Shown here piece by piece: positions 2,459-56,709 of a stretch of DNA of 64,000 nucleotides. Position numbers and translations under genes: made by a program. The notes under the pieces were generated by a model. That model made no database searches. It was not told the DNA's origin and was given only the letters and a program-made list of their open reading frames with translations. The stretch lies in contig QPGO01000099.1 in assembly GCA_008632985.1 (NCBI GenBank), positions 165,679 through 229,678 on the forward strand. The letters are read 5' to 3'. This stretch comes from Psammoneis japonica. Lineage: Eukaryota. How positions within the stretch are numbered: the stretch's first letter is position 1; each line of letters starts with the position of its first letter.

Positions 2459-4530
2459 CTAGTCCATAGAAATATATTTTGCCCAAATATACTGAGTAAA
2501 CCCCAAGATACTTCCCGTGTGCATCATTTTGGCAATCAAATCAGCCGCTGATTCCGAACAAAACAAATCTTTGCAACGTTGCTGAATACCTGCAAACGAA
2601 GCATGTCGAACCAAGTCGAGAGGAGAAAAGGTTCTCTTGTGATCCCGGCTTTGATTCGACTTGTGCAGCTTCAACACACGATTGCCCTCGAGAATTCGTT
2701 CCAAAATGTATTCTTCCGATGTAATGATGCGATCCACCAAGGACAAATCCTTTGCTTCGGAACCCAAATACACATCACCATTGCAAACTTTGCCCAACGT
2801 CCCTTCCAACGAAGGCCGGCCTTGGACAACTAGTCGTTGAAATGCCGCATGCGTCTTGTCAATGGATCGTTGTACCGTTTTAATATTGTCCTTGGTGACT
2901 TCACCAAAAGACGAAAGAGGCGCCTTGCGTTCACCCGCCTTGATCAAAAGCGGTTTGACCCCCCGACGTTCCAATGCTTCGCGGAGATTAATGCTTTGCG
3001 TATAAACGCCAACCGATCCAACCGTGGCAAAGGGTGCAGCAAAGACGTGGTTGGCTTGAGACGCAATCATGTACCCACCCGATGCGGCAACATTGTCGAC
3101 ACACACCGTAGTAACGATACCGGCTTCTCTCGAGAGTCGTTGTACTTGAGAAGCTGCCAATCCAAAGTCCGCCACGCCGCCGCCGGGTGATTCGACCAGC
3201 AAGACCACTTCCAATTCTTTCGGTAGCGGGGCTGTCTTTTTGCCGCCATTTTGTTTGATGCTTCCAAAGGCGTGTCGACGATGCTGTGTTAGTAGAAAGG
3301 AAACAACTTGTTCTAAATGATCCACATCAATAGCTTTTCCCTTTTTATCCTTGTGCCGACCCACTTCCACCACGACCACCGTCTTGTCAAAGGTATCCTT
3401 GATATTATAATCCAGTGGCGGTGGCTTGGGTCTTCTCCATCCGACTCGTTTTCGTACAATACGTTTCCATTTTCGTTTCGACATGGTCATGGGTGGCGTT
3501 GCCAAGGCTGTGTCGAGCGCGTGTTGATCCTTGGTGTACTTGTCGTTTAATCGTTCCCACACAAAATGCTGAATGGGACGCATCAATTCTTCGTGAGAAA
3601 GCCATTTGGATATCGACTTGATGAGCCATAGACGCATCATGGTGGAAAAGGCCGAGCTTGCCATAACATCCAATACAGCCATGTTGCCGGCTCGTCCCGC
3701 TCGGCCCATACCACCGTACATGGCATTGTTTGGCATTTTTCTTTGTTGGTTCTGTCGTCGCGATGACATGACCCATGGGATATTACTAGGTGGCTGTTGT
3801 TGTGGTGGCTGCTGCAAGAACGGAGATCGCATCACCATGTATGCTGACGTACTATTTGACAGCGTCTTCTGGGGTTGTGGTTGAGTACTTGTAGTCTCTG
3901 GCTGTGGTTTACTAATCGTGGTGGTTGTATTGGTGGATGATATGATTCTTCACTTTTTCGAGCTGCATCTTTCGGACTATCCTCCTTTTTTGCATCAGTG
4001 ACGGGTTTGGGTTTAGCATCAACAATCTCCTCCTTCTTCTTTAGAGTAGTTGATTCTCGATTCTTTTTCTTATTGGCATCTTGCTTGATGGCTTTCTTTT
4101 CCTCCATACTAATTTCCTTTTTAGGTACTGACGGCTCTTTATCTTTTCCTTGGGGTTGAAACCACCACGAGATGCTCCGCTCAAGTTTTGACGTACCGGT
4201 CGATGATGATTCTGGCTGTTTTGATGATTCTTCGCTGCTCGACTTTGATTTGCCCTTTCCAAACAACCCACGTCTGCTACTACTCGTTGTCTCGGGTGGC
4301 GGCGCTTTGCTAGTTTCCTCTTCAGACTTACTATTATTGTTCCTGGGCAAAAAGTACTCAAAAACAGATCGAAACCTCTCGGGTTCTTTGGAAGTGTCTT
4401 CGTTACGGCGGCGCTCTCGGCGATTTGTGAATGACGGCGCAGCAACAGCCCTGTTGCTGCTTTTACTAGTAGAAGCATCGCATAACGCTGCTGCCACCAA
4501 AAGTAGGGGTATGCAACGGTCCACTCTCAT
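2459..4530 (-). CDS. Peptidase S49 (SppA/SohB-like) with signal peptide and long low-complexity N-terminus; two frames joined near ~3945
   Basis: ESPGG, VAASGGYMIA and FATVGSVGV motifs in ORF 2459-3838, whose frame stays open upstream to ~3950. ORF 3832-4530 starts with a signal peptide (MRVDRCIPLLLVAAALCDA). Confidence 0.8.
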
Positions 4531-4649
4531 TGTTGGAAACTCGAGCTCTGACTCTAGGCTGATATTCTCTGTCGTATCGATGCCTCTTCTCCGTTGTGGT
4601 TGTTGCCATCAAAATCTGAAGTCTGAAGCATGATGGTGGATGCGATGGG

Positions 4650-6100
4650 TGGATTTTGGATTTTCGCTGATTCGCCTGCGGTTCCACGTGTTGGAGGGAG
4701 GGAATCTTGTTTCAAAAACATCAATTTTCGATGACGTGTCATCAAATCATGAATGGATCTGTAAATACGAGATTCCATCACTGACCTGTTGGCAGCAGGC
4801 AAAACGAAAGAGACAAACCATCATGATCAAAAACTTTTGGTCAATGAAGAGACGGTCTGATTCATTCAACGCACAACACAATGATGGTACACACCTTGTC
4901 TCTCCATAAGAAGTTGCATCCAAAAGTTGTGTTCTTCTGATTTGTTTCTTTTGGAAGCACATCATGTCACACGTGCCCGCTTCTTGTGCATTTTTTCTGC
5001 ACACAGGGCAGCACTGCACAGACGTGCTCATCTCTCCTGAAAACAGTGGCAGAACACATTAACCATGAGAGAAACAACAGCACCCCCAAGCAGAGTTGTC
5101 AGGGAATTGGATGGCTGGTGCCACTGCCCAAGTTGGGGTGGTGTTGGAGGAGAGGAGGCACACACAGAAAGCTGCCACAAACACACACCACCCTTGCCTC
5201 TGTTTTGCAGACAGCCCACTTTCACCCTTTGGTGCAAGAAAAACAGAGCAGAGCCATGTCATTAGAATGGGTTGCCTTCCTTCAAGGTGGCATGGGTGCA
5301 AAAGTGGGCCCGATTCCACGTGCTCAGAACTTGGCACATTTTCTGCACAAATCGCCGAAGTCACCTTGCCAACTTGAACCCTCTTCCAGATGATGGAAAC
5401 TTTAAAATTTCACATGACAAAGTGTTCAGACAACTTAATTAGACTCCCCTCAACTTGTTCATGGAGAGAAGCTGCAATTTTCCACACATTCGTCGTTTGC
5501 TGCCACAGCTCTGACAAACTTGAACGTCGTGATTTTGGCATCTTTCTGATTAGATTTCGTGTGCATCTTCAAAAACGCATGGAAACTTGCAGCGCCTCTC
5601 CACAAACAAGTCAAGGGAAGTGCAGTTGAGTGGTTTGGCTCAGCACCCCAACATCAATGAGAGATGGAACATTTTTTGGCCTGTGCAATTCGCGCAATGT
5701 GTGAGTTCATTGAGCCTTTGACCATGATTCCAGCCCTTCTTGCTCTCCAGTTTGCTGGGGTCATTGCCCACCAAATGCAGCCATTGATGGCAGAGAGCGC
5801 AAACAGAGCTTCTGCTTTTTCCAGGCAGCTGCCACATTTTGCTTTTTGGCCAGAGCAACTGGTGCACTCCTCCATGAATGTGGCAGCTCAACTCCAACAG
5901 CATGGAGCAACAAAGCAAGGCACAGGGCCACACATTGGATGCAGCTGCATCTGGCAACAACCACACTTGTTTGTTGGTGGATGAAAAAGCATCTGGCAGC
6001 TGTGCTTGCTTGTCAATGACATCATCTGCAAAGGCCCTCACTTGCTGCAGCAGCGCTTGCCATCATTTTTTTTTCAAAAATCATGAGTTCTAAATAAAAT
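4650..6100. mobile_element. TpA-depleted degenerate repeat/TE remnant, family unassigned
   Basis: Near absence of TA, with TG/CA excess and overlapping Cys/His-rich, Tyr-free ORFs. One minus-strand frame reads LFALSAINGCIWW, weakly reminiscent of a transposase C-terminus. Confidence 0.5.
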
Positions 6101-18726: not shown

Positions 18727-20835
18727 ATGAGTGGGAGGGCTCGACAGAAAAAGCGAACGACACAGTCGCTGCGTTCGCCATTATTGTCAAGCGAAGAGAG
18801 CGAAGAGGAAAGTCCCCAAGTTTCGAGGAAGAAATCGAAAAATACCAAACAAACCCGGATCATTCTTGATGACGCAGCTTTGAAGACCGCGAAAGTTCCC
18901 GTGGTGCTCCGACTTTCCGCCATCAATGGAAAGAAGAAGGCTAAATTCAATAATGACTTCTTCTTGGACTATGTTGAACATGATGAACTTGATTGCAGCT
19001 CCAATTTCCAAGACATTGAGCTGGCAATCGACGAAGCGTTGGCCAACAAGGAAGGAAGCATGAAGTTTGAGAGGTCGGTGGACAGTTCAGGCATTGCCTT
19101 CTGTGCACATTCTGAAGAATTTGCACAGGATGAACTCAAGACTGTTCCTTTGGTAGACAAGCAAGACAAGCTACGGGCTTTGAGCAATGATGCATCCTTC
19201 GGCAATGCGCTCAACCACATTGCTTGCCAAGAACTGAGCCGCTCCCGCCGCAGGGTGGACCGATGCATTCTTGATGTTGTCGTGCACATGAAGGAAAAGA
19301 AAGTTGTAAAAGCAAAGAAGCACTCTGGTGGCAGTGGCGGCACCAACAGGAATGGTGGGAATCGGGCTCCTGCTCCCAAAGCCAAGGAGAATGTCAAGGA
19401 TTGTGACACCAAATTAATTGTCGACACACTTGGTCCAGTCGTCAAGCAACTCGACGAGAAGACTGATCAGCATGTTGCAAAGATTCACGAATCAAACTGG
19501 GACATCCTAACGACAATTGAGATCCCCCCACGAAATGCATTTGAGCAAGAACACGGACTTGATCTCGATGCTTTCACAGAAAGAGAAGACATGCATGATG
19601 ACAACGACGACAATCCGAGTTGCTGCGAAGGCATGAAGCACCACATCATTCGTCGAATGATTTTTTTTTGAAGCTCGTGAACTTGATGGGTGCAAGAATG
19701 GCACTGTTGCAGGTGCCTGCATTGGGAGCAAATCCAAACTGTTCGTGTGGATGAATGGGGCAAAATGCAAAATGACCGAGTTGAACAGGCGCACCTCAAA
19801 GGCGTGGGAGATGCTCAATCAGAAGCGCAAAAGCAAGAAAGACAAGAACATCAGAGAGTTGCCATTGGCGTTGGCATGATTGATTCCAACAAAGACGTTG
19901 CACATGACCCAGCTGGTGAGCCGCAGCATGACGACGAAGGTGTTGAAGAAAATGATGCGAGTGAGTTGAGTTCTCCACAGAAGATGGCACCAAAGAATGG
20001 AAGCAGCAAACAATCTAGAGCTGCTTCACAATCGCTGTGCATGGAAGCCAAAACCTTTGCAGAAAAGCTCACAGGAACACCGTGCTCTGATCTTTACGAC
20101 GCTTTCACAGAAGAGGCATTCAATTGCTTCCAGAGTGCCATTGCGTCAGATCCAGAATGCCGCAAGCCAGATCCAGCATGGGCGACATGGCAGCTGGATG
20201 AGAATGACATGGGAACATGGCCTTCAGTGAGTGATTTTGATTTCATCGCCAAAGAGAAATTCATCAAGCGCAACAACGGCAAGCGACCTGAAAAGAGTGC
20301 GCACCCCAGAGTGGATGGCAAGCGTCCGAGCAAAGACGGCTCCTCTGATCTCACACCAGAAGTCCGGGCGACTCTTGAGTGGGGTCGTCAGTCTGAAACC
20401 CGCACAATCAGCGGCAACGCCAATGAAGAGTTCGTCATGCCCGGAACAGCAGTGTTCAAGTTCACTCGGGGTGATGAGAGTGGGGCTGGCGAACCAACCG
20501 CAACCATGAAAGATGCAAATGAGACGATGAAGAGTCTCCGGAAACGCTGCACCCAAGATCGTACCCACAAAGTGTTCTGCATCTCTCAATCAGATCTTGA
20601 CAGATTGAAGGCAAAGGAAATGGAGTGGCAAGTCACCATTGGTCCTGACGATGAGTGGGTCGCCTTGCACTCTGCCGTTAAGACTCTGACGACGAAAGAC
20701 ATTTTGGAGGCACTGCAAACAAAGCAGAGGCAGAGGAATCCAATGAAACTCAAGTTTGATCTGGTGAAGACACACCAGGATGAGGAAGGGGCTGTCCTTT
20801 GCGACAGTGACTGGCAGTGGTGTAAAATGGGGTGA
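18727..20835 (+). pseudogene. Degenerate TE-associated ORF of unknown function, frame break at the T-run near 19661-19669
   Basis: Consecutive 314- and 381-aa ORFs just inside the left IR, nearly Tyr-free, convergent with the DD34E transposase. Confidence 0.55.
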
Positions 20836-20899
20836 TGGGATGAGAGTGGGACAATGTTTGCTGTAGAGTGGCAGCAGTGGAAGTTGCAGTTGCATCTGC

Positions 20900-21790
20900 T
20901 CTTTTCTGCATTTGTGCCAGAGGCGGCGCCTTTTGCTCGCCGCCGCCAAGACGATCATCCGCCTCTGCTTCCTCTTGCGCATGATGAGATGTTGTCCCAG
21001 CTGTTGCAAGTCATCTTCCTTCTCCTCAAGAGAGGCAACCGAAGGAAAATGTTCACAGCCTGGAACACGGGAATGGCGACAAAATGAACGAGCCATTGCA
21101 GGAGCGACACTGTCAAGAGCATCAAGGTGATGCTCGAACCACCGGGTGCTCCCATGTCGCTTCAAGTGCGCCTTGCAGCGACCAAACATCATTTCAATCG
21201 GATTTAGATCAGGGCTGCATGGTGCAGCACAGATGATTGCAGCCCCCATGGCTTCAATCATGTTGATGGTGCAATCAGAATGGTGTGTCGACGCATTGTC
21301 CAGCACCACGATGGACCTCGGCTCACCCTCACTGCAGCTGCCGAGGCATGGAACGAGTTTCTCTTCTGCCCACAATTCAAATCGTTCCTGATCCACAGCT
21401 CCAATGAGGGGATCCCTCTCTTCATCTCCTGAGTTGCCTCGCTGAACAATGTCACACGCTTCCTTCATAAAGCCGTTGATGTCACAGGCAGCAAGCAATG
21501 AGTGCCGAACGCGTTTGTCAATCTCGAAGGACGTTGACCGAACAGGAGTTTCACCCCTTTTTGACCACCAACGCCTCTTTCGTGCTGCACTTCGATCCTT
21601 GTGAGACTCGTCCAAGAATGTCAGCATGTCGGGTTCATGAGCCGCGGCTTGCAAAGCGTTGGGGTGCCTCGCCCTTTCTTCCTCGTCCATTTCGATCGCC
21701 TTGTCGGTTGCGACTTGAAGTGAGTGCCCCACGTCCTTTCTGAGTTTCTCCCATGTCTGACTTGGACTCCACTTTTTATTGGTTCCTCCT
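20900..21790 (-). mobile_element. IS630/Tc1/mariner-type DD34E transposase, catalytic part, mutated
   Basis: FLDES...VVLDNASTH-(34 aa)-APCSPDLNPIE. The family consensus is PYSPDLNPIE. Upstream in frame is KKWSPSQTWEKLRKDVGHSLQV. Confidence 0.9.
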
Positions 21791-22008
21791 TTATGGCAGG
21801 AACTCTGGACACGAAGTGAGGAGGTGTGGAACCCGGGCTGGTTTGGATTGCCATGCGTGCGAGCATCAAATTTTAGAGCTTTGATCTTTGCTTGCCACCA
21901 ATCATTTTTTAAAAAATTCGCACGCTTAAATGATGGGTTCGCAATTAATTAATGTGCGACGTAATTCTACATTTATGTTTTAACATTGTGTCAAAAAATG
22001 GCGATTTA

Positions 22009-22398
22009 GACGCGTTCCAAGTCTAGGTGGGACCTCGCACTACTGAACTGTGACATCGACAGTTTTTTGAATCACGTCGTATGTCGCGCACGTAGATTTC
22101 TACGTGATTTTTTTGATATTTTGTGTCATTTTACGGTACACTTATTGAGCGATCCGTCCAACAACTTTTGACATTTTTTGTTACAGCGCGATTCTATAAT
22201 GTCTTAAGAATCGCGTAGGGCAGGTGCATTTGCAAAAACGTCGAGTGGTAAGAGGCATAATTGTACCACAAACTTGGCCGTTTATTTGATGTTGAAGATA
22301 AATATATCCATTAATTAAATTCTCGTACTACGGAGCTCGCACGTAGAATTCTACGGGCCCAATGTCACACGGAGTCCCACCTAGGGCTGGAACGCGTC
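22009..22398 (+). mobile_element. 390-bp MITE, ~25-bp TIR (GACGCGTTCCA..CTAGGTGGGAC), 4-bp TSD TTTA
   Basis: ttta|gacgcgttcc ... ggaacgcgtc|ttta. It is a near-identical inverted copy of 27474-27863. Confidence 0.92.
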
Positions 22399-22698
22399 TT
22401 TAATTCTTGCATTCGTGCATGGACACATTATAAGAAGAGACGTGGGTTTCCCCTTTTTTGATGATTCTGGTGTGATTGTTCTATGGTGGATGACAAGAGA
22501 ACTGTCCTGACGTTGTGCATCACTGGTTGCTGAGTGTGTCTGTCATTGCAATGATGCACTGACATCGATTTGTTAGATTGGACCCTTTGTTTTCTGTTGG
22601 TTGTTGCCGGGCACGCCTGCAAGCCCGCGTGCAAAGCTTGGAACATTTTCCAAAATGCAGAAACAATTCCCATGTGCAGCACCAAAATGTTCTGTGTG

Positions 22699-25600
22699 TC
22701 AATTGGACTGCAAAATGTCATCATGCTGTTCATTGGTGAAGCACGTGACACTTTTTCCTTCCATCAACCGGAGCAGGGCGTCACACCCGTCCGGCAGTCT
22801 GCACAGACTTAAGTCTCTCTTCAGCGGTTGCCGAAGACACAGACCATTTCTGGTCTCAACCCTGGAGAGCATGACACATGCCCAGTTTTGTGTGTGGCTC
22901 CAGCCACGCACAAACACATTGTCGACACCGCTTCCTTGAAGCTTGTGTCCTGCAGTCGCGTTGTTTGTTGTGAATGGCAATTGGGTTGCTTTCAGTCCGA
23001 GCACATGTTTCTCTTTTTCCTCAGCTGTCATCTGTTGGGTTGGGTCCTTTAAACAGGCTTTGAAAGTGGAAGACTCAGGCTTGAGCGAAAAGGTGGGTGG
23101 ATCGATGCTTTTGTTGCTGTGCTTGAGTTCTGCATGATCCACCTGGGATGCTGTGACACCTCGAATGGATGTTCCACAGTCCAAGACCACTTGCGATGAA
23201 TGTTCTCCTGGTTTCAGCACGACTTTTGCCACAGTTGCTTGTGTTCCGTTCGCAACACCATTTGCCACATTTTCATTGCACGGGATCATGACTCTACATC
23301 CCTTGTGTGTTCGTAATGCTGGATCAAGCCTGCCAGATTGCATTTCCACATCGCTCTCTCCACAGTTTTTCCAGAATGTTTTGTACACCGGGAAAGGCCT
23401 GTGCTGTCTTGCTCCGTCACGCACTTGTAAATCGTCACTGAAAATGGCTGGAGAGTCCAAGACTTCTCCATCTCTTTGGTGCAGTCTCTTGGTCCTTTCC
23501 TCAAACAAGGCTGTGTTGATGGAGTCTCTTTCTTTGTTTCTGTGTGATGCATGTTCAATGTTCTCTGGCAGTTGTTGACCCTTTCTCACTGCTCTTTCAT
23601 TGATTTTGTCGATGTCTTCGAGAGTCGCTTCGCCATCTCTAAATCGTTTTAGCAAACTGCCCCATTCTGGATCCTCACTGAATCTGTGCATCCCATGCAA
23701 CTGGATGTGGCAGTTCACCCATTCCTGGAATTCGGCACAGGTCTCCTTGCACAGAGGGTGCATTCCGTGTCCAACTGGCTCGAGTTGTCTCAGGTCCCCT
23801 GCAAACACCACATTTGCACCCCCACAAGGCCTGTCTAAATTGGATTTCACGACAGATGGATTAGCATGTAATTTTTCTAAATCTCTTCTGCAAGCAAATG
23901 ACATTTCGTCGACAATCAGCAGACGAGTGTCACTCCAGCTTTCCATTTGTGTTTCTGTTGTTTCTTTTTTCCTGTTTAGATGGGCAACTCTGTGAATGGT
24001 GTCTCCTTTCAGAATTGTCGCTGCAACTCCGGTCATGGCAGTGACGGCAATTGTTTTTGCAGTGAATGGTCGTTCAATTGAAGAGCAACATTCTCTTGCG
24101 CACAAAACAACAAGATCGACAACAGTGGATTTGCCACTTCCTCCTGCTCCATGCAAGAAACAAATTAACTGTGTGCCTCTTTGTTCTCGCACTTCAACCA
24201 ACTTGGCCAATCTCCTGCACTCTTTGTTAAATTCGTGTCCAATTCCTCCTCTTACATCACCACTTGCTTGTTCTCCCAGAGCGTCTTTGCAGTGCGTCAA
24301 AATGAAAGTTCCTGCCATGACTTCAAAAGCACGACTTTGATGTGGGTCTAGCTTGGCTTTTTTTGACCAATCAACTGAGCTTTTGGCTGAGCCGTTAGCT
24401 TCAAGGACATCAACGGCTTCTTCCGAATTAGTTGTGTCTTGGAAAGATCGTCGAATGCGTCCAGTCTTGGTCAGTGATGCTCAAACTGCATCTCGTTTCC
24501 CAATTTGAGGCACAGGTTCTTCATCTGCTTGCATGCTGTTTTCATTGTCTTCTTCATTAACCTCAATTTCTGGTGGCTCCATTGTTTCTACGACAGGGAC
24601 CGAATTGATGACAGTGTTTTGATCTGAAGAAGTCATGCACATGCATGCCAAGTGCTGACATCCTGCAAGGTGACTTCCCTTCTGTCTGGTTTGTTTGCCA
24701 CTTAAATTCGTGGGTGCGGCTGCTTCATCATTTGCTTCCATCCCGTCTTTGTGTTCATGGTTCACCAATTCATCTAGAAGAGCATCAAGCATTTGTCCTT
24801 GCAAAGCCGTTCCGATGTCGTCTTCGGTGTCGCTTTCGCACCTTGTGCTAAATTCATTGTCGTCCGATGCATGCTCGCGGGCAGTGCGTTTAAGAAAATC
24901 TGATGTGCTTTTTAATCGCAGACAATTAGATTTTGCATCTTGCAGATTTTGCAAGAATTTCAGATTTTCTTCAGTGACGATTTCTCTCTCCACCGCTTGA
25001 CGGAATGANNNNNNNNNNNNNNNNNNNNNNNNNNNNNNNNNNNNNNNNNNNNNNNNNNNNNNNNNNNNNNNNNNNNNNNNNNNNNNNNNNNNNNNNNNNN
25101 NNNNNNNNNNNNNNNNNNNNNNNNNNNNNNNNNNNNNNNNNNNNNNNNNNNNNNNNNNNNNNNNNNNNNNNNNNNNNNNNNNNNNNNNNNNNNNNNNNNN
25201 NNNNNNNNNNNNNNNNNNNNNNNNNNNNNNNNNNNNNNNNNNNNNNNNNNNNNNNNNNNNNNNNNNNNNNNNNNNNNNNNNNNNNNNNNNNNNNNNNNNN
25301 NNNNNNNNNNNNNNNNNNNNNNNNNNNNNNNNNNNNNNNNNNNNNNNNNNNNNNNNNNNNNNNNNNNNNNNNNNNNNNNNNNNNNNNNNNNNNNNNNNNN
25401 NNNNNNNNNNNNNNNNNNNNNNNNNNNNNNNNNNNNNNNNNNNNNNNNNNNNNNNNNNNNNNNNNNNNNNNNNNNNNNNNNNNNNNNNNNNNNNNNNNNN
25501 NNNNNNNNNNNNNNNNNNNNNNNNNNNNNNNNNNNNNNNNNNNNNNNNNATGACGTTGGTTTTGTCATGAGCATGAGCACTCCAGAGCAATCTTCTTACA

Positions 25601-28600
25601 GTTTCCGCTGCATCAGAAGAATGCTTTCTAAGCTCTGTCGCCAGTTTGTCAGTGACATTCAGCACTTCTTGGCAAGTGGCAGTGTCGTCTTTTTGGGTGT
25701 CTTTGAGTGTGTGCTCAATGGTGCACTGTGCAGAGGGGCCTGGCATCAGAGTTGCGATGTTTGTGTTGCATGTCAGCTTAGATCTGCTGATTGCAGGGCA
25801 CGACACATTCTGGAAAGCATCGCATTTTCTCCTCTTGGGGACAATTTCTTTGACGCATCTACAACGGAATGAGCCANNNNNNNNNNNNNNNNNNNNNNNN
25901 NNNNNNNNNNNNNNNNNNNNNNNNNNNNNNNNNNNNNNNNNNNNNNNNNNNNNNNNNNNNNNNNNNNNNNNNNNNNNNNNNNNNNNNNNNNNNNNNNNNN
26001 NNNNNNNNNNNNNNNNNNNNNNNNNNNNNNNNNNNNNNNNNNNNNNNNNNNNNNNNNNNNNNNNNNNNNNNNNNNNNNNNNNNNNNNNNNNNNNNNNNNN
26101 NNNNNNNNNNNNNNNNNNNNNNNNNNNNNNNNNNNNNNNNNNNNNNNNNNNNNNNNNNNNNNNNNNNNNNNNNNNNNNNNNNNNNNNNNNNNNNNNNNNN
26201 NNNNNNNNNNNNNNNNNNNNNNNNNNNNNNNNNNNNNNNNNACATGCCACAAACTCTGGGTTTGTCCAGCATTTAGTGCAATGAGGGCAATGCGCGAACA
26301 TGCCATTTTTTGATTTCTGACCGTGCTTGTGCCTCAGGTGTCGAAGCTGCTGATTGCTGACCATTTTAGGCACAGTGCGACAGGCAAGATTAACAGTGCA
26401 ATCATGATCAAAAGTTTCTGTGATGGACAGTCGAGTGTAATCCTCGCCACATGTCAACCCAGTTGTGCAGATCCGACTGGTCAGTTTGGACAGTGTTCTT
26501 TTACCATCACGCCTAAAATCTCCATTGTCAGAATGCAGATTGTCTCTTGCTGTGTTTGTGTCTTCAAACCATGCCTGAATGTGACCGTGTGCCGAGAGTC
26601 TACCTTGTTCTTCCATTGCAGCTGTGAAAGCGGAGGGTCTCCCTGTGTAGAATTCAAAATCTTCTCTGGGTGAATTCCTTTTTAAGTCCCATCCTGTTGC
26701 TTCTTCTGTGACGATTTCCAATGACATTTCGAGCGCAAAAGCCGTGACACCTGGGTGCTCCACACGAAGCTCGTTTCTTGCCTTGGCCTTTTCGGTCAAT
26801 TCTTCATCCGACATTTCTGTCACATCTCTGCCTTTGTCGATGAGCATGTCCGCACAAATTTGAACTAAAAAGGAATTGGCATCATCGGGGCTTGTCGTTG
26901 AAAATGCTCCAGGTTGTCCAAAGTGGTGTTGGCAGGTTTCAGCATTTCTTCTCATTTTTTTTTGCTGCTTCATTTGTGTGTGGAACAGATGCCGACACCA
27001 CATCCACTGCACTTAAGAAACGATGTCCCAATGCGCAATTCCTGCGTTCACCGGTCTGTCTGTCACACATGGCACGGTCGATGTCGTCTTGTGTCAGTTC
27101 ATTTGAGAATTGTCTGGCTTGATTTTTGTCTCTTGCTTTCCATCCAGCACTGTGCACCATTCGTTGCTTCACAGTCAGATTGCACAGGGTCAGAACAAAG
27201 AGTTGCTTGTGGAAGTGGGGCTGAGAAATGCGGGCCAAGTGATCTGCGCAATGTGCTAGATTTGTGCAGTCGGCGAGACTCCCATCTTCTTTCATTCTTG
27301 TTTCATTGATGCCGCCACGCCCACAAGGAAATTGCAGCAAGCAAGCATTTGCCAGGTTGTTGTCCTTAAAGTCACTGACTGATTCTTTCAAAAGATCAGC
27401 TTTGAATTCAATGTCAAAACCGCTTGCAGCTGCATCGTGCACCAAGTCTTTGAAGCTGTCTAAATTACGTTGTGACGCGTTCCAGCCCTAGGTGGGACTC
27501 CGTGTGACATTGGGCCCGTAGAATTCTACGTGCGAGCTCCGTAGTACGAGAATTTAATTAATGGATATATTTATCTTCAACATCAAATAAACGGCCAAGT
27601 TTGTGGTACAATTATGCCTCTTACCACTCGACGTTTTTGCAACTTCGCCTGCCCTACGCGATTCTTAAGACATTGTAGAATCGCGCTGTAACAAAAAATG
27701 TCAAAAGTTGTTGGACGGATCGCTCAATAAGTGTACCGTAAAATGACACAAAATATCGAAAAAATCACGTAGAAATCTACGTGCGCGACATACGACGAGA
27801 CTCAAAAAACTATCGATGTCACAGTTCAGCAGTGCGAGGTCCCACCTAGACCTGGAACGCGTCTTGTCCACCAGTTGTTGAAGAAACGGCACCATTGGGG
27901 AAATGAACACTGTGGGACTCCGTGGTTTCAATGTTTGCATTTTCGCTTTCGTCCAAACTGCCATTGTCCACTAAAACTGGATTCTGCAAATTGCTTCGCA
28001 CTTCCTCTAGATCGATGTCTTGATTCATCCAATTCTCGTGGTGATGGACAAGCCATTCCAGTGCTCTCATTGCACAGTGAGTCCTGATTTTGTTCTTTTG
28101 TCTGGCCATTCGCCTTTGCTCTGGTGTCATTTTGCCGGATGCCAACACAACCACATTTTGATGAAGGTTCAACACGTCAAAGTGCATGATGGTGCGGGCG
28201 ATGCTCTTCATGTTTGTCTTGCAATGGGAAAGACCACCTTGCAGTTTCTTCTGTTTGCCACCGACAAAACTGAAGCAGCAGCCATGTGTTTTCACAGGTG
28301 TCAACAAAGCTGGCTCTACTTTGGCAAGACACGATAATTCAGGTGGTGGTGTTCCAAAACAGCAATTGTTTGCTGTTGCGCACAGAGGCACAGAAGCAGT
28401 GCAGAGACTTCTTTTGCAAGGCCTGCAACAAGTGAATCCTTCAGACCTTCTGTTGTCGTTCGGAACAACATGTCGAGCTCTTGGCAAAAGCAACAGGTCG
28501 GAAATCCATCGGCAATCCCGTGGAATGTGTTCGTCATCGATGCGACAACAATCGTGCGGGTCTTCCGATGCTTGGTTCCATTCAGATGGAGTTGACAGGT

Positions 28601-28976
28601 GTCTGGTTTCTTTCAATTTGTTGACAGAAAGTCGAGCAGTCTGAGACGGTTTTGACAATCTGTCACACACCAAACAAACCCAAGGGATGTGCTCGTTTCC
28701 GTTCCTGCAGCGAAGCTTTTCAAAACGTCTGTTTGTGTTGTCTTGGTGCCTGGTGTTGCTGTCATCCACAAGACAGCTTGTGACGGCAGGCTCACACTGC
28801 GCAAAGATGAGTTGAACCAACAACGCAGCAATGGGTGCACACCAGATGACACGATGACCCATGAGACTTGCAATGAGAACAATCTGAGCAAAGTCAATGT
28901 GATCAACAGATGGCACGTTGTAGATCGCTCGTCTCGATTTGCTTGACATGTCATCGTTCGCTCGTGCGCTCTGCAT
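22699..28976 (-). mobile_element. Helitron-like Rep(HUH)-PIF1 helicase element, degenerate, interrupted by a MITE and two N gaps
   Basis: N-terminal ATANN..FGTPPPELS.L..VE and QFPCGRGG; PGAFSTTSPDD; HUH motif EEQGRLSAHGH; Y2-like QCTIEHTLK. PIF1 motifs are GAGGSGKS, TAMTGVAA, LLIVDEMS, FAGDLRQLEPV, VANGT, GHKLQG and CVMLSRV. Confidence 0.85.
27474..27863 (-). mobile_element. 390-bp MITE copy, 4-bp TSD TTGT, inserted in the Helitron-like ORF
   Basis: ttgt|gacgcgttcc ... ggaacgcgtc|ttgt. It splits the Rep ORF between the 27846-28976 and 26939-27445 segments. Confidence 0.92.
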
Positions 28977-29419
28977 TGGGATGCACTGCTGACAGCAGCG
29001 GCATCACACCGGTGAGGTCATGAACGTCAGCGGGAACGACATCTTGTGGAAGTTCAATGTGCGATGATGTGTCTTGCAGTTGAAGTCGGTTCTGCCCACT
29101 GCGACTGCACGACGTTTGTACGACTGTGACGCCTCATGTCTCGATCTGCTGCCAAGTGCAACAGATGTGTGTTGTTGCAGTGTGTCCTCATGATCGGCAC
29201 GTTCCTTTCATCCCACTTGTGAAATGGAAGGCGTCCGTCGATTGGGTGCAACAGCCCTGCGGCAGCATGTGCTGCACACATTGTGTGGGATGCATGCCAG
29301 ACACATGTTCTTGCTGACGCAGCACAGCATGTTTCAACGAATTCTGCTGTGCAAATCCCACTCATCATGCAACCGTGGCTGGATGTGAGGAACTGCTGGA
29401 TGGCCATTGCATCAGCAAT

Positions 29420-29700
29420 GTCATTCATTCTCAGTGCTGGCTCATCCAAACACAGCCCAGGTTCCTGATCAACGACGTTCTTCAAGATGGCGGCATGCCG
29501 GTGTGTCCACAAGTGTCGCTGGTGCCCTGTGCAAGATCTTGTCATCCAACCATCAGTTTCAGCAGGAGTCTCACCATGCTGAAGATGATGATTGAAATGT
29601 CTTTGACATGTTGAAGGATCATGGGTGTCCCGAGGAAGACAGAGATTGCTCGCTTGCTTGCACAGGTTGGAGAGCTTGGTTTTCGCGCCAGCTCCGACTT
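29420..29700 (-). pseudogene. Probable N-terminal (HTH) half of an IS630/Tc1-like transposase
   Basis: HGETPAET...ILKNVVDQEPGLCLDE..LRM resembles the ..P.LYLDE.. HTH segment of IS630-like transposases. Confidence 0.5.
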
Positions 29701-29884
29701 TGACAATGTCTGAGCCCAACCCGATTAGAACAAACGGAGATGACAGCCTGTTGAAAACCACGGCGATTGTAACGCCGGACCATTGGGTCAATCTTCATGG
29801 TGTTGCTTTGCTGATTTCCCAAAGCAAGAGTCCGCTCTGATTGCTCTTTCATTGAGTGGATGATTTCCGTGACAAAATGCCCCC

Positions 29885-30312
29885 CCGGCAGGTTGCTGAA
29901 CATTGTTTGTGCCCCATCGTTTTCAATGACACCAAGCACAGGACGTCATTTAAGACACAAAAGGCGATTGTCAGACAGCAGGCAGCGTTTGGGGAAAGAG
30001 GTGCTCGGTGCGAACAAACAACCTTTCTCGATTTCACACGAACAAAACAACGTTTTGCACGTCAATTTTCGCCAATTCTTGTTGGCAGTGCGTGCGAGAT
30101 TTGCTCTTTCGCGTTGTGGCCTTGTGGACCGTTCAAAGACGTTTCTAAAACGCCCCTGCATGTCTCTGGGCGTGGCTTGGTTGATGAGAAATAACGCCGA
30201 GAGTTGGTGAGAGTGGTGTGACGGGTGTTGTGACAACAAAAAAAAATTTGTTTTTTACGTTTGTCTGTGTGTGTGCAACTTGGCACTTTTTGGTGGAACA
30301 CCAACACGCAGC
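29885..30312 (-). repeat. ~430-bp inverted repeat, right (TA-depleted) copy
   Basis: It differs from 18242-18670 almost only at TA and CG dinucleotides. Confidence 0.95.
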
Positions 30313-30524
30313 TTGGACAAAAGGGTTTAGTCCCATGGGGGAATGCGCCACACGTGCGACTGTTGCCACCATGGCAAAACCTGTGGTTGCTCCACCACCA
30401 TCTTGGCACTTTTTGGTGGAACACCAACACGCAGCTTGGACAAAAGGGTTTAGTCCCATGGGGGAATGCGCCACACGTGCGACTGTTGCCACCATGGCAA
30501 AACCTGTGGTTGCTCCACCACCAT
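30279..30524. repeat. 123-bp tandem duplication (30279-30401 / 30402-30524)
   Basis: The unit cttggcactttttggtgg...gctccaccaccat is repeated apparently exactly. Confidence 0.9.
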
Positions 30525-33099
30525 CGCACTGCCGCAGAGGGCAACACAGCACGCACTGACACAGCAAACAGCATGCCAACAACACATTCCGCAATCACTT
30601 TTGGGCAATTGTTGGCAAATGTGACCAAACATTTCATCTTTTCGAAAGAGGAACCTCCAAGGAGCTGCTGCAACAAGGTTGCTTGCCTCCTTTGCTGGTG
30701 TGGTGCTCTTGACAAAAAGACCGCCAGTGATTTTGCCGCAACTTCTCATGGCACAAAAGAGCAAAAAACACTGGCTTGAGAGCTGCATCTCTGCCAGCAG
30801 TGCTGAAACAACCAAACCAACCCACACTTTTGTCGCACTGAGTTGCAGTGCCAAAAAAGTGGCTTCAGCTGGCCGAGCTCATTGCCACTGGAGAGGACAC
30901 TGAGCAGCATGCCAGCCAAAGCAACAGAGGATTTTTGACCCCTGTCATTGTTGAAAACTTGTGAGCTCTCATCATCTCAATTTTTGGAAAGCTTCCCCAG
31001 CACCCAGCAGCATTTTGTGCACATGTCACCGGCGGCTGCCCAGGGGGCACGTTCTTGGTGTGCTCCCTCTCCCCCCCTTGAGACCCACCTCCTTTTTGTC
31101 AGAATGTTGCCAAGCATCTGCTGCAAGCTCCTCATTCTCTTGCAGTCAGGAGAAGCCCAAATGTGACCCAGTCAAAATGTGACAGCTGTGACTCATGCTT
31201 TGCCTGCCACTCTGAAGAGCAGCGCATGGCATGTCTCTTGAGCTGCGCGCCTTGTTCCCTCAAGCTTCCTCTCTGATGTGTGCTCAGCCCAAAACAAAAG
31301 ATGGTCAGGAGGCCTGTTGCATGGAGCAGCAGATGTCAAACATGCAGCCATGGAAGGCAGGCACCAAGGACTCCAGCAGCATGTTTTGGTTGCTCTGTGT
31401 GGCCATTGTGTGGTGTGCCAAGAGCTGTGGTCAAAAGGCCAAAGCACTGGTGGCTGCAAAGACAGCCAAAGTGACAACAGAAAGCAACATGAAGCAAGTG
31501 TGTGTTTCAAGTGTTAGAGGCAGACTCTGTCTTGACCAAGCATGATGTTGTCTCAGCTTCTTGAGATGGCAGCAATCTTTTGAGGGAGTTGAGGGATTTT
31601 GACTCAAGATTTGTTCAGCAACATTGCACTGCTTTTGGCTCAACTGCACAGTCATCTTTGAGACAGAGCTTTGCTGAGAAAATTGGAGCTTTTTTTACAG
31701 TGGGCACAAACTGCACTGCCATGTCTTGGCCACCCCAGGTCAAATGCCCCTGAGTGGCTGCACCAGCAATGATGTGCAAACTGCGTTGTTGGGCCACATG
31801 GCTCTTGCTGGCATCATCACAAAGGCAGGTTGTGTGGTGGAACTTGCACCCACGTGTCATCACTTTGAAAGACCTTGCAAATGTGACTCAAGCACTGTCA
31901 TGGCACAGCAGCTCAGCCACAGTGATGCCTTTGCATGGTCACAGCCCACATCTCCTGCCAGTCAAAAGTGCTTTGCACACCTGGTTGAGTGTGGGGTGGC
32001 AGAGTGCTGGTTGCCGATGCATGGCATCTGGGGCAGACTTGTCATTGCTGCAAACACTGAGCAACATTGACCCCTGCACCACTTCAAAAGATTCACCCTC
32101 AACAGACACTTTTTCCAGACTTGGGTGCACAAACATGAAAAAAATGCCCCTTTTTGAATGAAGCACACAGCCCAAACTGCAAACACTGAGCACCATGAGC
32201 CCACACCACTTCAAAAGACCCGCCCTCAACAGACTTGGTTGTTCCAGACTCGGGTGTGCAAACGTGAAAAAAAAACCCTTTTGCGCGAAACTTGCAGTCC
32301 AAACTTTTGGCACCACCCTCAAAAGCAAAAACACAACAATCTTCAAATGTGGTGTCATGAACACATGCAAAAAGGTCTCTTGTGTGTGCCCTGAAAAAGT
32401 CTTGAATGGGTGACAAATTGTGTTTTGTCAAAACACTTTGAGCACAAGTTGCTCTCAATGAATTAAATGAGACACTCATTGGCGCTAAAGCTTGAGAAGA
32501 CGTGAGAAGAAATTGAACTTAGCCCATGCACAATGGCACCCACTTTGGACCCTTTTTTCACTGCTTTGCCAACATGGATGACTGGAACACTTGCATCAGT
32601 TGATGGTGTGGATGAAACACACACAGAAGTGGAAAGGAACTTGTCCTCAGAGGCACCAAATGGTGAGTGAAATGAGGCCAAAATGTTGTTGCCAACAGAT
32701 TTGTCTTGCTTCTTTTGCTGTGCTGCAGCCTGCACCAAGCATTTTTCCTGCTGTTGTTGATGACACAGACTGCACAAAAAAAGCAGGCCATCATCATTGC
32801 TGAAAGCCATGGCCATTCTGGCTGCAATTTGCTTCAACAACACAGCCCTTGCACTGGGAAGTGACATCCTTTCCAGACTGGAGGTGTGCAAAGCTGCACT
32901 GCACCAGCCTTGGCACATTTGTGGCTGGACAAAACCTGTCAGAAAAGTGTTGCAAAGGGAGACAGCTTCAAAATGAGTGCAGCCCAACATTGCTGCACAA
33001 GCCACAGCTGCTCAATGCCTGCAGCAAGCTTTGTTCAAAAATGAGCTTGTTTGGCTCTTCTGGCAAGGTTTCTTCACCACCATTCAAAAGAACAAGGAG

Positions 33100-34540
33100 C
33101 TGACCCCTCTCTTGTTGAAGAAGTCAGCGCCAATGTGTGCACTCATGCTCAACCCACCTCACCCATTGCTGGTGGCTAGACAAAATGGGCTTCACCAACA
33201 ACTTACAGCCCAGTCATCTGAGGCTTGGGTGCCCCTGATCAAAATGTTTCTGGTGTTCAGAGTTTTGTGGATGAATCACTCTTTGTGCTGTGCATTGAAA
33301 AACAGAGCTGGCAAGAAAGCGTGGCACTCTGCATGTTGGACAGAGGCAAAATTGCAAATTTTTTTGGAGACACCCACACAAATGAAAAGGATTTGCTTCT
33401 TCCGTTTGCCACTCAAGCATCATTTCACAAGTTCAATGCAAGTCGTGCAGTTTTGTTTCACTCTGCAAATGCAAGAGAACAGGCGCATGCTGAGTCGGCC
33501 GGAAAAGTGCTGTGAAACAACATTGCCACATTCGCAGCAAGTGGCAGCCCAAAAATGTCTGCATCAAAGGGGGAATTGGTTTTGTTGAAGTCCAAGTCTG
33601 TGTCCAAATCTGTTGTTGCAAACTGCAAAGTGCTCGCGACAGGTGTTGACAAGGTGGGTTGGGACCCAGTTGCAATGGCTGACCCTGTTTGCATTGTCGC
33701 AGTCCTTGCACATGAAATGATTTGGCATGCAAGCTGGAAAGGAATTGACAAAGACCGTGGTTGCATTTTTGTTTCTGTTCCAGTTGCTTCTCAGGAAGAA
33801 TCACAGTCCAAGGATGCCAATGGATGCAAAATTTTCACTGCTGCTTTTGAGGCCATGGTTGGTCTGGATCCCAAATTACGTCAAGACGTCTTGTTTGTGA
33901 TTGAAGAGAGTGACAGACTCAGAATGCCCTTGAAGGATGCCAAGTTCCCTCCTCTTGTCCTTGACTCCTTTGTGCTTCCTGATTCATTGCCATTTGAAAT
34001 GAAAAATGACATCATGAAAATGCAAAGTTCTTCACAGCCACAAAGAGGAAGGGATGATTTTAGGGAGTTGGTTGAGCACACAGAGGGTGAAAAAAAAGAA
34101 TGGGAGGCCAGGTGTTTCTCATCAACAAGCTCTCAAGAAGGCTGGTGATGTGTGGGATGGGGTGGATCTTGGAAATTGGCTGTGCAAGCAACGGGTGGCC
34201 AAGTGGAAGGGGAAACTGGATGCTTCTTGACAAAGATGACTGGAGAAGACTGGCGTTGAATGCTGCATTTTGGCTGAGTGACAGGAAGCCATGTTTTCAT
34301 TTCTGGGTCAATTCAATGAACGGGAGGGACATTGCAGGGTGCCTCAATGACACATTGAAAATGGAAAGAGACTTGGAGTTTGGATGGGCAATCAAAAGCA
34401 AGCATGGAAGGCGGGAAAGCTGGAGAACAGCCGCATGAACCGACTGCTGGATCTTGGCATTGTTGTTGCTAGAAAGCAGTCTCTGCAATGTGGGAACTTT
34501 GTTGGTCTCGTGTGTGTTTCTGTTTTAAAGAATGAAAACA
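33100..34540 (+). pseudogene. Hypermutated, frameshifted paralogue of the HA-domain helicase at 129-2249, including 3' flank
   Basis: ANCKVLATGVD, AFEAMVGLDP.LRQDVLFVIEESDRL and QKQAWKAGKL..NRLLDLG are shared. GY->GC occurs twice and the stop region gagtagt->aagcagt. Confidence 0.9.
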
Positions 34541-42863: not shown

Positions 42864-43099
42864 GAATGGCTCGCTATCGAAAGACGTTCGAAAGCTGTTG
42901 CTCTATCTAACCCAAGCACTGAAAAAACCGACACAAGTTCTCAAACTTCACCAAGGTATGTGCTTTCTCTCTGATCTATTGAATGCAAATGCAAATCTTG
43001 TTGGCGGATACCGGTAGAGCGGGCGCATCAAAACCACACGCATCGCATCGCACCCGCATCAATTCACGAGCGCGACTGAAAAATGACGGGAAAGCGAAA

Positions 43100-44250
43100 A
43101 ACGCGACCCATGACACGACTGAATGCAGCACAACAACCATCCCAGTGCAGTGGCCAGCAGCAGCGATCACAGCTGGTGACATGGCACCTCTGATGCTGTG
43201 GTTCCAGCTCTCGTTCGTTGTGTTGACAATTTGAAATGAAGCTCGAACAATCACTTCACAGAAAAAAGCATGGGCTGATGACACCAGTCATCTCCTCCCG
43301 CAGCGAGGTGTGGTCATTGTGCATGTTGTCCACAAACAATTGCCACGAGTCAGACCCGAGTGCTTGGGTCTTTGATGGTGTTTTTGTGCAAATGATTGCT
43401 TGCATCTTTGGAAGTCAGTTTGAGGTGAAATTACAACCACCCATCACAGAGCAGTCTCAGGGCCTTGGCACGGAGACAACGAGGCAGAGAGGGTGTTGCT
43501 TCTTTCAAAGTGCACAAGGGTGCCACAGTGCGCCAAGAGCTGGAAGAAGCTGATGTGTTTGGGGTCCGAAGCATGCCAGAGGTTTTGGCAAAAGATCAAG
43601 CAATGCATCCTGTGCCAGCAACGTGCAGTGTCCTTTCAACCTTTTGGGGAAGCACGCGCTCCCCTGGCTGGCTTGTGGCCAGTGAAGTTGTCAACACAAG
43701 GTGAGGCCAAGACACTTGCACTCAACACCCAACTTCTGGGTGACACAACACTCTTTTGTGGCTGCACTTGTTTCCTTGGGTCCAGCAAACGCAAAGCTTT
43801 TAAGGCTTTGGCATCTTGGCAAAGTGAAGAGAGTGGAGTGGGCTCAGAAGTCATGCTGCAGGCACCACTTGCACAGATGGCTCAAGTTGGGCACCTTCCA
43901 AGTTTTGAGCTGGTCTTCATTGCAAAGGTTGGCTGACCAGGGTCATGGCAAGACTCTTTTGAAGCACAAGGGTGTTTGGGTTTGGTGAGTCTGCATTTGC
44001 AACTGACTTTCCTGCACAGACTGAGCTGCTTTCAAGCACCAGAGTCACATCAAGCCAGTGGGCCATGCTGTTCTTGCCCCAAGAGTGTCATTTCCTGTGG
44101 TTGCCACATTGCAAGTGCCATGAATTTTTTTCAGATGGTTGAGCTGTTTTGGCCAGATTCGAGCCGAGAAAAGCAGCAACTGGTCTGCCTCAAAGGCAGA
44201 CTCGGATCCCTGCGGACACTCAAGATCTTGAGTGTCTGCATGTCTTTAGA
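43100..44250. pseudogene. TpA- and CpG-depleted degenerate segment; left edge homologous to ~53760-53960
   Basis: cgagcgcgactgaaaaatg.cgggaaa..aaaaacgcga and cagctctcg.tcgttg..gctcgaac.atca are shared with the 53.8-kb region. Composition is shifted to TG/CA. Confidence 0.6.
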
Positions 44251-56362: not shown

Positions 56363-56709
56363 TCTGAACCGTATCAAGCAACCAATGTCAACAACAACCC
56401 AAACCGCAATGGCAAGTTTGCCTCATTTTTTCTCGCGAAACCAAGCCATCTGTCTTTTTGTCGTAGAATTCTACGTGGAGTTCAGTACTTGCGTCACGCA
56501 CCTTTTGCTTCAACGTTATGCCACCCGCGCTTTTCTCGCGCGAAAAGAATGCGCGATCTTTTCGAACCCATCGACTCGTCAAATCATCACGCGCAACACG
56601 CATCACGATCGCTTCTCGCATCAATTTTTCTGCACCGCATCAACGATGACGTAGGATCGAGCCCCGCCGAGGACTCATAGAGCTACGCCGTCACTGATTG
56701 AAGCTCCCA

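Follow-up and report, generated by a model that had tools for sequence, protein, structure and literature searches.

Within a 64,000-nucleotide stretch of contig QPGO01000099.1 (assembly GCA_008632985.1; the whole stretch is called the window below, and positions are counted from its first nucleotide), a 15-kb neighbourhood that holds a Helitron and a Tc1/mariner-type transposon has lost nearly all of its TpA dinucleotides, and with them the conserved tyrosines of both transposon proteins. We consider it very probable that an in-situ DNA hypermutation of silenced mobile DNA has erased TpA here nearly to saturation and has killed both elements. In the process that we propose, this neighbourhood and four other islands of the window would have been hypermutated where they stand, through almost saturated transitions on either strand that turn TpA into TpG or CpA, and the Helitron and the Tc1/mariner element would have been killed by missense changes that include both catalytic tyrosines of the Helitron Rep protein. 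Several dead mobile elements lie nested here, in DNA of nuclear origin.

A 500-bp profile of the window is bimodal, with five TA-poor islands that together take up about 23 of the 64 kb (Table 1). The islands contain 131 TA in 23,003 nt (5.7/kb) vs 1,619 in 38,700 nt of background (41.8/kb), at a G+C content of 0.49 vs 0.47. The background has a TA observed/expected ratio of about 0.6 and a CpG ratio of about 1; in the islands the TA ratio is mostly below 0.2, with several 500-bp bins that hold zero TA, the TG/CA ratio is raised to 1.45–2.0 and CpG is lowered. The main island is broken up by two TA-normal insertions of a miniature inverted-repeat transposable element (MITE) and by a TA-normal stretch at 21777–22007, and its edges are sharp, spanning some 200–400 bp: dense TA ends at 18970 and the next TA follows at 19154, and at the other end a TA at 34061 is followed by one at 34470. 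At the left edge of the island at 43.0 kb, TA is dense until 43015, after which only two TAs occur until 44247.

An earlier note on this DNA, made from the letters alone, had claimed that conserved tyrosines in these elements are systematically read as Cys or His, the catalytic YxxxY of the Helitron included, and had proposed tabulating the Tyr-conserved columns in alignments to domain profiles. The four motif strings on which it relied (APCSPDLNPIE, CVMLSRV, QFPCGRGG and QCTIEHTLK) lie on the minus strand at the places it gave, TGC and CAC codons included, and translation bears out its 539-aa PIF1 open reading frame (ORF) with a single Tyr. When aligned with homologues, GQYxFKY stands opposite AQCTIEH in the window, FPYGRGG opposite FPCGRGG and NWxYVMLSRV opposite NWACVMLSRV, and in the DDE_3 alignment the homologue sequence IIYTAPYSPDLNPIE stands opposite IICAAPCSPDLNPIE; both YxxxY columns are Tyr in 93% of the 15 full-length Helitron homologues. 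We then tabulated the window residue at each conserved column, using 100 homologues for PIF1, 15 full-length Helitron proteins and 150 cluster representatives for DDE_3. All 13 PIF1 columns with at least 60% Tyr now read Cys (6) or His (7); in the same domain Gly is kept at 24/24 columns, Trp at 7/7 and Asn at 12/13. Across the whole Helitron, Tyr is lost at 26/26 columns (17 Cys, 7 His, 2 Phe), with 505/677 other conserved columns kept (Fisher p = 1.4e-15), and in DDE_3 it is lost at 8/8 columns (4 Cys, 4 His), with 95/124 kept (p = 2e-5). Taken together, Tyr is kept at 0/34 columns (21 Cys, 11 His, 2 Phe), compared to about 75% of the other conserved columns; 32 of the 34 thus read Cys or His as the earlier note had it, and the loss is systematic in PIF1, the Helitron as a whole and DDE_3. 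The overall Tyr share is 0.25% in the island ORFs (7/2849 residues) vs 2.67% in nine host ORFs of the window (121/4530).

The minus strand from 22699 to 29003 reads as a single Helitron protein in pieces, with the domain order DUF6570-Rep-PIF1, that is broken by one frameshift, one TGA and one MITE insertion and is adjoined by a Tc1/mariner remnant of the DD34E type. These pieces are collinear with the 15 full-length homologues (906–2012 aa), of which 15/15 carry PF14214 and 13/15 also PF05970 and PF20209. Rep and helicase share one frame of 1438 codons, whose lone in-frame stop in the readable part is the TGA at 24481–24483(−), and the PIF1 part runs to 593 aa between stops, or to 539 aa when counted from the first Met. 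The frameshift falls in Rep, near 26939–27012, and by its coordinates the Helitron frame continues over the MITE insertion at 27474–27864. Two stretches, 25009–25549 and 25877–26241, read N, so that some of the Rep domain and the beginning of the helicase linker are not readable; the reading frame is continuous over both. With the domain partly N and its remainder mutated, Helitron_like_N scores 24 bits vs the Pfam cut-off of 28.9, and the alignment to homologues is clear. The HUH motif was not located in the readable Rep pieces and probably lies within the N run 25877–26241, and a PDB sequence search with the Rep frame returned nothing at E ≤ 1. Contigs of the sequencing runs show several copies of the Helitron. 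With CxxxH in place of the YxxxY pair, the copy described here is a Helitron by descent that we predict to be catalytically dead. In the Tc1/mariner remnant the D..D(34)E triad is still readable as FLDES, VLDNAS and NPIE, with 34 residues from the second D to the E.

The direction of change can be read from homologues and from duplicated segments of the window. The Tyr columns are Tyr in 60–98% of homologues, and the usual natural alternative at these columns is Phe (143 cells), not His (21) or Cys (13). Homologues that bear Cys or His there are globally poor in Tyr, with a share of 0.2% in P0025, 1.0% in P0014, 0.8% in P0225 and 0.8% in P0298, and the catalytic pair of P0225 reads GQHAFKH. 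Active homologues with Cys or His at these columns were what the earlier note had named as evidence against itself; the proteins with such residues are Tyr-depleted (P0025, P0014, P0225), and the related metagenome loci with such residues are TA-depleted (L006, L022, L018). All of these are further mutated copies and not active variants, and the refutation that the note set for itself does not take hold. A codon model of TA loss accounts for 27 of the 80 mismatches at conserved PIF1 columns, among them Ile replaced by Thr, Met or Val, Leu by Ser or Pro, Val by Ala, and Lys by Glu; the reverse model (RIP-like, TG/CA to TA; RIP is the repeat-induced point mutation of fungi) accounts for 0/80. 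An ‘AT>GT/AC’ control explained 17/80, but it overlaps the TA model at TAT codons and hence is not clean, so that we relied on dinucleotide counts instead.

Two pairs of duplicates, each with one copy inside the main island and one TA-normal copy outside it, bear directly on these counts. Of the 28 differences in the 428-bp pair, 20 have TA in the partner opposite TG (8) or CA (12) in the island copy; 20 of the 24 TA sites have changed, every TA of the island copy stands opposite a TA, and 20 of the 23 A>G/T>C differences fall at TA. The second pair consists of a helicase gene with four HA domains at 129–2249(+), which is TA-normal, and a truncated paralogue, at 33429–34701(+), that sits at the right-hand end of the main island and is poor in both TA and CpG. 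Here 23 of the 31 TA sites of the gene stand opposite CA or TG in the paralogue, as do 36 of its 57 CG sites opposite TG or CA. Over both pairs, just one TA of an island copy stands opposite a non-TA base of the clean copy. Because TA in the clean copy stands opposite TG or CA in the island copy in two pairs, TA is the ancestral state in the islands and TG/CA the derived one. The change from TAY to TGY or CAY, with TA ancestral, had been proposed in the earlier note, and it has the support of three independent lines: the conservation of the Tyr columns, the Tyr- and TA-depleted relatives with Cys or His, and the two paralogue pairs. We also observed that the main island stops about 70 bp or less from the end of the duplicated HA-helicase segment.

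The TAs that remain in the islands differ from the background in their flanking bases. Relative to their background share, TTAA is enriched 4.3-fold, CTAA/TTAG 3.5-fold and CTAG 2.3-fold, and ATAC/GTAT and ATAG/CTAT are depleted to 0.22, ATAT to 0.26 and GTAC to 0.38. At the paired sites (n = 55), 0/15 R-TA-Y sites vs 4/14 Y-TA-R sites survive; the R-TA-R sites of the pairs went to CA 11 times and to TG once (p = 0.006), and changes followed the predicted strand at 17 of the 22 sites that are informative (p = 0.017). The preferred target is thus 5′-T-A-Y (equivalent to 5′-R-T-A on the opposite strand), with Y-T-A-R as the context that survives, and in the literature examined we found no earlier account of this extended context. 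Strand-coordinated runs of TG or CA were not seen in either pair, with 8 vs 10.6 expected in one (20 changes) and 11 vs 12.3 in the other, neither of them significant.

This context has direct consequences for coding sequence. Because T-A-Y is hit most and Y-T-A-R survives, the Tyr codons TAT and TAC are hot and the stops TAA and TAG are cold. Every Tyr codon lies in the preferred context and becomes Cys or His, and the T-A-Y preference fits the preponderance of Cys (21) over His (11); ATA, TTA, CTA and GTA codons are also hit, as are A-initial codons after a T. Since an in-frame TGA can be obtained only from an in-frame TAA, the loss of TA is unable to create a premature stop. In the islands TAA occurs 2.4 and TAG 1.7 times per kb per strand, vs 8.7 and 8.5 outside, and both are thus three to five times rarer, and TGA is commoner; all four of the frame-ending or in-frame stops that we checked are TGA. 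As no stops are created, frames of 452 and 1438 codons have stayed almost open in spite of heavy mutation, and function should not be read from an open frame in DNA of this kind. The earlier note had also described this mutagenesis as an efficient way of destroying Tyr-dependent mobility enzymes, which stands as a consequence for the HUH Rep, but nothing points to selection for that effect.

The two MITE copies inside the main island retain normal TA. The element ends in inverted repeats of about 30 bp and is flanked by apparent target duplications of 3 bp (TTT and TGT). Its k-mer depth in sequencing run X1 is about 113,800 vs about 60 for single-copy DNA (~1900 times), as would be expected if it had very recently multiplied to well over a thousand copies. 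One X1 contig skips 22004–22399, and an insertion-free form therefore exists in that run. Since this ~1900-fold element is untouched inside an island, high copy number alone is no trigger; nor is the element immune, since a diverged relative at 57700–58092, in another island, is mutated, with 3 TA vs 28 in the young copy and 13 of 27 aligned TA sites opposite CA or TG. Either the process is episodic and the two MITE copies are young, or its targeting follows something other than repetition. Given the untouched high-copy MITE, its mutated old relative and the single copy hit in each paralogue pair, we propose that targeting would follow a silenced chromatin domain or element age and not copy number alone. 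The process may act as a genome defence.

The loss of TA is accompanied by a decay of CpG to TpG or CpA that is separable from it. Deamination of 5-methylcytosine at CpG yields the same products, TpG and CpA, and is seen in the same islands (CpG observed/expected 0.04–0.9), but it concerns another dinucleotide. In the 428-bp pair, 4 of 27 CG sites have changed, vs the 20 of 24 TA sites given above, and among the environmental Helitron loci described below many are CpG-poor with normal TA and one (L021) is TA-poor with normal CpG.

To place the window among its relatives, we drew on a scan of metagenome contigs, from which the best 80 of 183 confirmed Helitron relatives were examined. Three loci (L006, L022, L018) have a TA observed/expected ratio of 0.00–0.04 in the matched gene and 0–1 Tyr at the 13 PIF1 columns; in L006 these columns read 7 Cys, 3 His and 3 Phe, with 89% of the other conserved residues kept. 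Three more (L051, L025, L055) are partly affected, and L025, whose match at 2944–4659 shows 5 Tyr, 5 Cys and 1 His at the 13 columns and a TA ratio of 0.44, may represent an intermediate state with a one-strand bias. The remaining 74 of the 80 loci have at most three Cys or His at the 13 columns each, and mostly zero. Between L055 and L031 (92.9% identity), 36 of 182 differences are TA vs TG/CA, in both directions, a modest enrichment that we do not treat as main evidence. These TA-free and partly affected loci show that the signature recurs in independent assemblies and in diverged Helitron lineages. The region itself occurs in three sequencing runs from one sample, probably the source of the assembly, and their contigs agree with the island sequence; at about 60–80-fold depth, 597 bp of the DDE_3 part show 3 differences. 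This argues against an assembly error. No run with the region is listed as RNA. Run X2, which is labelled ‘DNA?’, looks like spliced RNA over host genes, and it puts next to nothing on 18349–25008, which is no evidence on expression. An X2 contig skips 8150–8244 and 8792–8878 in a choline-transporter-like gene at 7781–9370(+), two short intron-like gaps of 95 and 87 nt.

The host is most likely a diatom, as judged from its proteins. Host frames in the window encode DDX10/DBP4, an S49 peptidase, NDH2, an O-fucosyltransferase, SET and MYND proteins and the helicase with four HA domains, and the DDX10/DBP4 frame is closest to diatom proteins, at 50–61% identity to named ones (Fragilaria, Fistulifera, Thalassiosira and others) and 66% to the best unnamed one. 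Full-text literature searches led to one preprint that describes this kind of process, of which the main text was considered, and to no account of TpA-directed hypermutation in diatoms.

That description, which dates from 2026, concerns the chlorarachniophyte Bigelowiella natans. According to the main text of the preprint, 230 of 231 de novo mutations in mutation-accumulation lines were A>G or T>C, all of them at TpA, in integrated giant-virus and virophage regions, with a mutation rate roughly 1000-fold that found elsewhere in the genome and in some of the lines only; windows low in TpA and high in CpA+TpG form clusters, low-TpA coding sequences are enriched in DDE endonuclease and reverse transcriptase, and the authors read the process as a defence against invading DNA, with an adenine deaminase of the ADAT2 type as their proposed agent (Mettrop et al., bioRxiv 10.64898/2026.01.13.699255). 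The window resembles what that text reports in the change from TpA to TpG/CpA by A>G and T>C transitions at TpA, the AT-to-GC direction, the local clusters and the transposon-type targets. It differs in its host, most likely a diatom (Stramenopila) and not a chlorarachniophyte (Rhizaria), and in its stage, since the B. natans evidence is de novo mutation in the inserts of a nucleocytoplasmic large DNA virus and a virophage, in which many TAs are left (Rho 0.45), whereas the window shows an end state of 0.00–0.2. The targets also differ from those reported there, and here comprise a Helitron, a Tc1/mariner element, a MITE relative and host-gene fragments. The main text of the preprint mentions neither diatoms nor CpG, flanking or trinucleotide context, and its examined parts mention no Tyr-to-Cys/His consequence. 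What the window adds is a new host lineage, an extension of the target classes, a motif that coincides with Tyr codons, separability from CpG decay and recurrence in the environment.

The islands also invite comparison with RIP as known from Neurospora, which likewise makes in-situ transitions in a dinucleotide context on both strands of repeated or mobile DNA and leaves sharp aberrant islands with dead transposases. RIP converts CpA to TpA, raises TpA and A+T and creates TAA and TAG stops. In the window, by contrast, TpA is destroyed, G+C is not lowered and stops are not created. Unlike in RIP, moreover, one member of each duplicate pair is changed (129–2249 and 18242–18670 are clean), and a very high-copy MITE is spared.

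To our knowledge, no natural enzyme that converts A to G in genomic DNA has been established, and with regard to the chemistry we give a cautious preference to adenine deamination within 5′-T-A, which a DNA-acting TadA/ADAT2-like or other deaminase would carry out, as proposed for B. natans. The A-to-I change made by ADAR and ADAT2-TadA enzymes reads as A-to-G, and the context of a 5′ T and a 3′ pyrimidine resembles that of these enzymes; the known tRNA targets of TadA/ADAT2 always follow U33, and the bacterial TadA target U-A-C would match T-A-Y. The main text of the B. natans preprint adds that ADARs favour a 5′ U, and it cites special cases, the only ones reported, in which such enzymes edit DNA (bioRxiv 10.64898/2026.01.13.699255). 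In nature, ADAR and ADAT2-TadA otherwise act on RNA, unlike the activity considered here.

The best-surviving alternative places the modification on the opposite base. A TET/JBP-type hydroxylase could make 5-hydroxymethyluracil (5hmU) or 5-formyluracil at TpA in silenced repeats, and as oxidised thymines mispair with G, this would lead to T-to-C changes, so that TpA would turn into CpA and, seen from the opposite strand, into TpG. The TpA outcome and the R-T-A context fit such a route equally well. In the portion of PMC11572971 that we draw on, dinoflagellate 5hmU is made by TET/JBP homologues, is enriched in repeats and silences transposons, and earlier work cited there found preferential replacement of T in TA and TC. 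This is a base modification that is concentrated on transposons, comes from a related supergroup and has T in TA among its reported preferences. Dinoflagellate 5hmU is, however, an epigenetic mark, and although it is abundant in dinoflagellate DNA, the same portion of that paper reports no loss of TpA; TC is also affected there, but TC has not decayed in the window, where no TC-to-CC excess is apparent and 20 of 23 A>G/T>C differences in the 93.5% identical pair fall at TA. On this evidence we regard a thymine route as rather unlikely.

A very improbable account is that double-stranded transposon transcripts were hyper-edited from A to I at the RNA level, and that reverse transcription or RNA-templated repair then carried the edits into DNA. 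Both the change from A to G and the preference for a 5′ T/U are ADAR-like, a comparison that the main text of the B. natans preprint also makes, but the B. natans mutations are reported there to have arisen in situ in single-copy integrated DNA (bioRxiv 10.64898/2026.01.13.699255). In the window, moreover, what is affected are DNA transposons (Helitron, Tc1/mariner and the MITE relative), non-coding spacers and fragments of genes. All of this lies in a single uninterrupted block of 15 kb whose edges are sharp, and both strands are hit.

That no mutagenesis took place at all, and that the islands are foreign or ancient DNA that is TA-poor intrinsically or by selection (through avoidance of a TA-specific nuclease or of TA-targeting insertions), is barely credible. 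TA is under-represented in most genomes, and the background ratio of the window is already about 0.6, but selection could not favour the loss of the catalytic tyrosines of an element's own enzymes. The HA-helicase paralogue and a repeat with a TA-normal twin 11 kb away show the same change, and the TA-poor state is common to different nested elements and absent from young insertions within the island.

We find it just as hard to credit a sequencing or assembly artefact, in which a modified base at TpA in heterochromatin would be miscalled as TG or CA. All runs with the region come from the same sample, as such an artefact would allow, but the island sequence is repeated in X1 contigs with a k-mer depth of about 60-fold, TA is normal in the young MITE copies within the island, the same signature is found in proteins and contigs of other, independent metagenome assemblies (P0225, P0025, P0014, P0298, L006, L022, L018), and the Illumina-based B. 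natans mutation-accumulation lines show the same change according to the main text of the preprint (bioRxiv 10.64898/2026.01.13.699255). A RIP-like process in the opposite direction, with the island copies ancestral and the TA copies mutated from CpA/TpG to TpA, can be set aside almost with certainty, for although pairwise differences alone give no direction, Tyr (TAY) is conserved across more than 100 homologues, the reverse model explains none of the 80 mismatches, the TA-bearing copies are an intact host gene and intact homologues, and island G+C, at 49%, is not below the background.

A Pfam scan covered 95 of the 105 island frames of at least 90 aa (the ten left out were overlapping frames at 4.0–4.6 and 18.8–21.9 kb, among them the DDE_3 frame, which had its own scan), and in these 95 it found solely the HA remnant (34351–34701) and a BEACH remnant (48795–49262); other weak matches were below the cut-off and chance-like. 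The BEACH remnant is a fragment of a host gene family that a mobile element may have captured. On its left side, the main island is filled by two TA-depleted frames of 315 and 382 aa in the same phase, at 18724–20835(+), which have no Pfam match and may encode an unrecognised transposon protein. Self-comparison of the window also showed units of about 294 bp with 71% identity at 12542–13104, in tandem or near-tandem direct orientation, a direct repeat at 30276–30525 in which a 127-bp stretch recurs at a 123-bp offset with 99% identity, and direct repeats of 101 bp with 95% identity at 47916–48353.

Table 1. Features of the window, with coordinates, strand and distinguishing details (TA and CpG values are observed/expected ratios where so stated).
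Feature	Coordinates	Strand	Details
TpA-depleted island	4500..6000	.	500-bp TA profile
Main TpA-depleted island	19000..34500	.	TA observed/expected 0.00-0.23 per 500 bp, CpG 0.04-0.9, TG/CA 1.45-2.0
TpA-depleted island	43016..44246	.	2 TA in ~1.2 kb
TpA-depleted island	46992..50006	.	contains BEACH-domain remnant 48795-49262(-)
TpA-depleted island	56518..60437	.	contains old MITE relative 57700-58092
Tc1/mariner-type DDE_3 transposase remnant	20590..21948	-	PF13358, 57.6 bits; 452-aa frame stop to stop; one Tyr
APCSPDLNPIE motif	21193..21225	-	APYSPDLNPIE in homologues; a further Tyr 4 residues upstream likewise Cys
MITE-like element, 391 bp	22008..22398	.	terminal inverted repeats, apparent 3-bp target duplication, 28 TA, CpG normal
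PIF1 helicase part of Helitron protein	22699..24480	-	PF05970, 59 bits; one Tyr
CVMLSRV motif	22858..22878	-	YVMLSRV in homologues
Rep and linker part of Helitron frame	24484..27012	-	contains N runs 25009-25549 and 25877-26241
QCTIEHTLK, catalytic YxxxY position	25702..25728	-	Cys codon TGC 25723-25725, His codon CAC 25711-25713
Upstream Rep piece, other frame	26939..27487	-	carries QFPCGRGG 27311-27334
QFPCGRGG motif	27311..27334	-	FPYGRGG in homologues
Second MITE copy, inverted	27474..27864	.	97.4% identical; 27 TA, CpG normal; separates DUF6570 and Rep parts
DUF6570 N-terminal part of Helitron protein	27865..29003	-	PF20209, 52 bits
Island copy of 428-bp repeat	29885..30312	-	TA-normal partner 18242-18670 just outside island; 93.5% identical
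Island paralogue of HA-domain helicase gene	33429..34537	+	HA remnant 34351-34701; paralogue of helicase gene with HA domains at 822-2307
BEACH-domain remnant	48795-49262	-	E = 4.6e-9, within TA-free island

Several points weigh against an in-situ, TpA-directed hypermutation of mobile DNA as we have described it. Its chemistry and its targeting rule are unproven, and as TA is a palindrome, adenine deamination and thymine modification predict the same outcome, extended context included. The context result is based on 55 paired sites and 131 residual TAs, and with no strand-coordinated runs there is nothing in favour of a processive single-strand enzyme. Fragments of host gene families (HA helicase and BEACH) also lie in the islands, so that a target of foreign DNA only would be too narrow. 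The agreement of runs from the same sample is not independent proof against a platform artefact, and the assignment of the host to the diatoms comes from protein similarity alone.

More speculatively, diatoms and other marine and freshwater protists, the latter known here through the TA-free Helitron contigs of metagenomes, may carry a dedicated, chromatin-guided DNA base editor that converts T-A-Y to T-G-Y in silenced mobile DNA. Such an enzyme would be a natural A-to-G editor of double-stranded genomic DNA, common to chlorarachniophytes and possibly old in SAR (stramenopiles, alveolates and Rhizaria); with Tyr codons hot and TAA and TAG cold, missense changes would be all that it needs to kill transposases, and the long open frames left behind would then be annotated as genes by gene finders. 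We offer this wider proposal tentatively, as a possibility and not as the expected outcome. The narrower finding has consequences of its own. Islands of this type yield long, Tyr-free, Cys- and His-rich open frames that are prone to be mis-annotated as genes, and a Tyr-poor, TA-free frame is a simple flag for them. The loss of TA runs ahead of CpG decay, and from the two combined one could date when mobile elements in these genomes were silenced. Handles for the discovery of the enzyme are provided by the T-A-Y motif and by the sharpness of the island edges, which would be of interest for base editing. In its polarity the process mirrors fungal RIP, since it raises G+C and inactivates genes without any need of stop codons. 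Should the host be a diatom, a mutational genome defence described in one chlorarachniophyte would extend to major marine primary producers, and the environmental contigs suggest a still wider spread.

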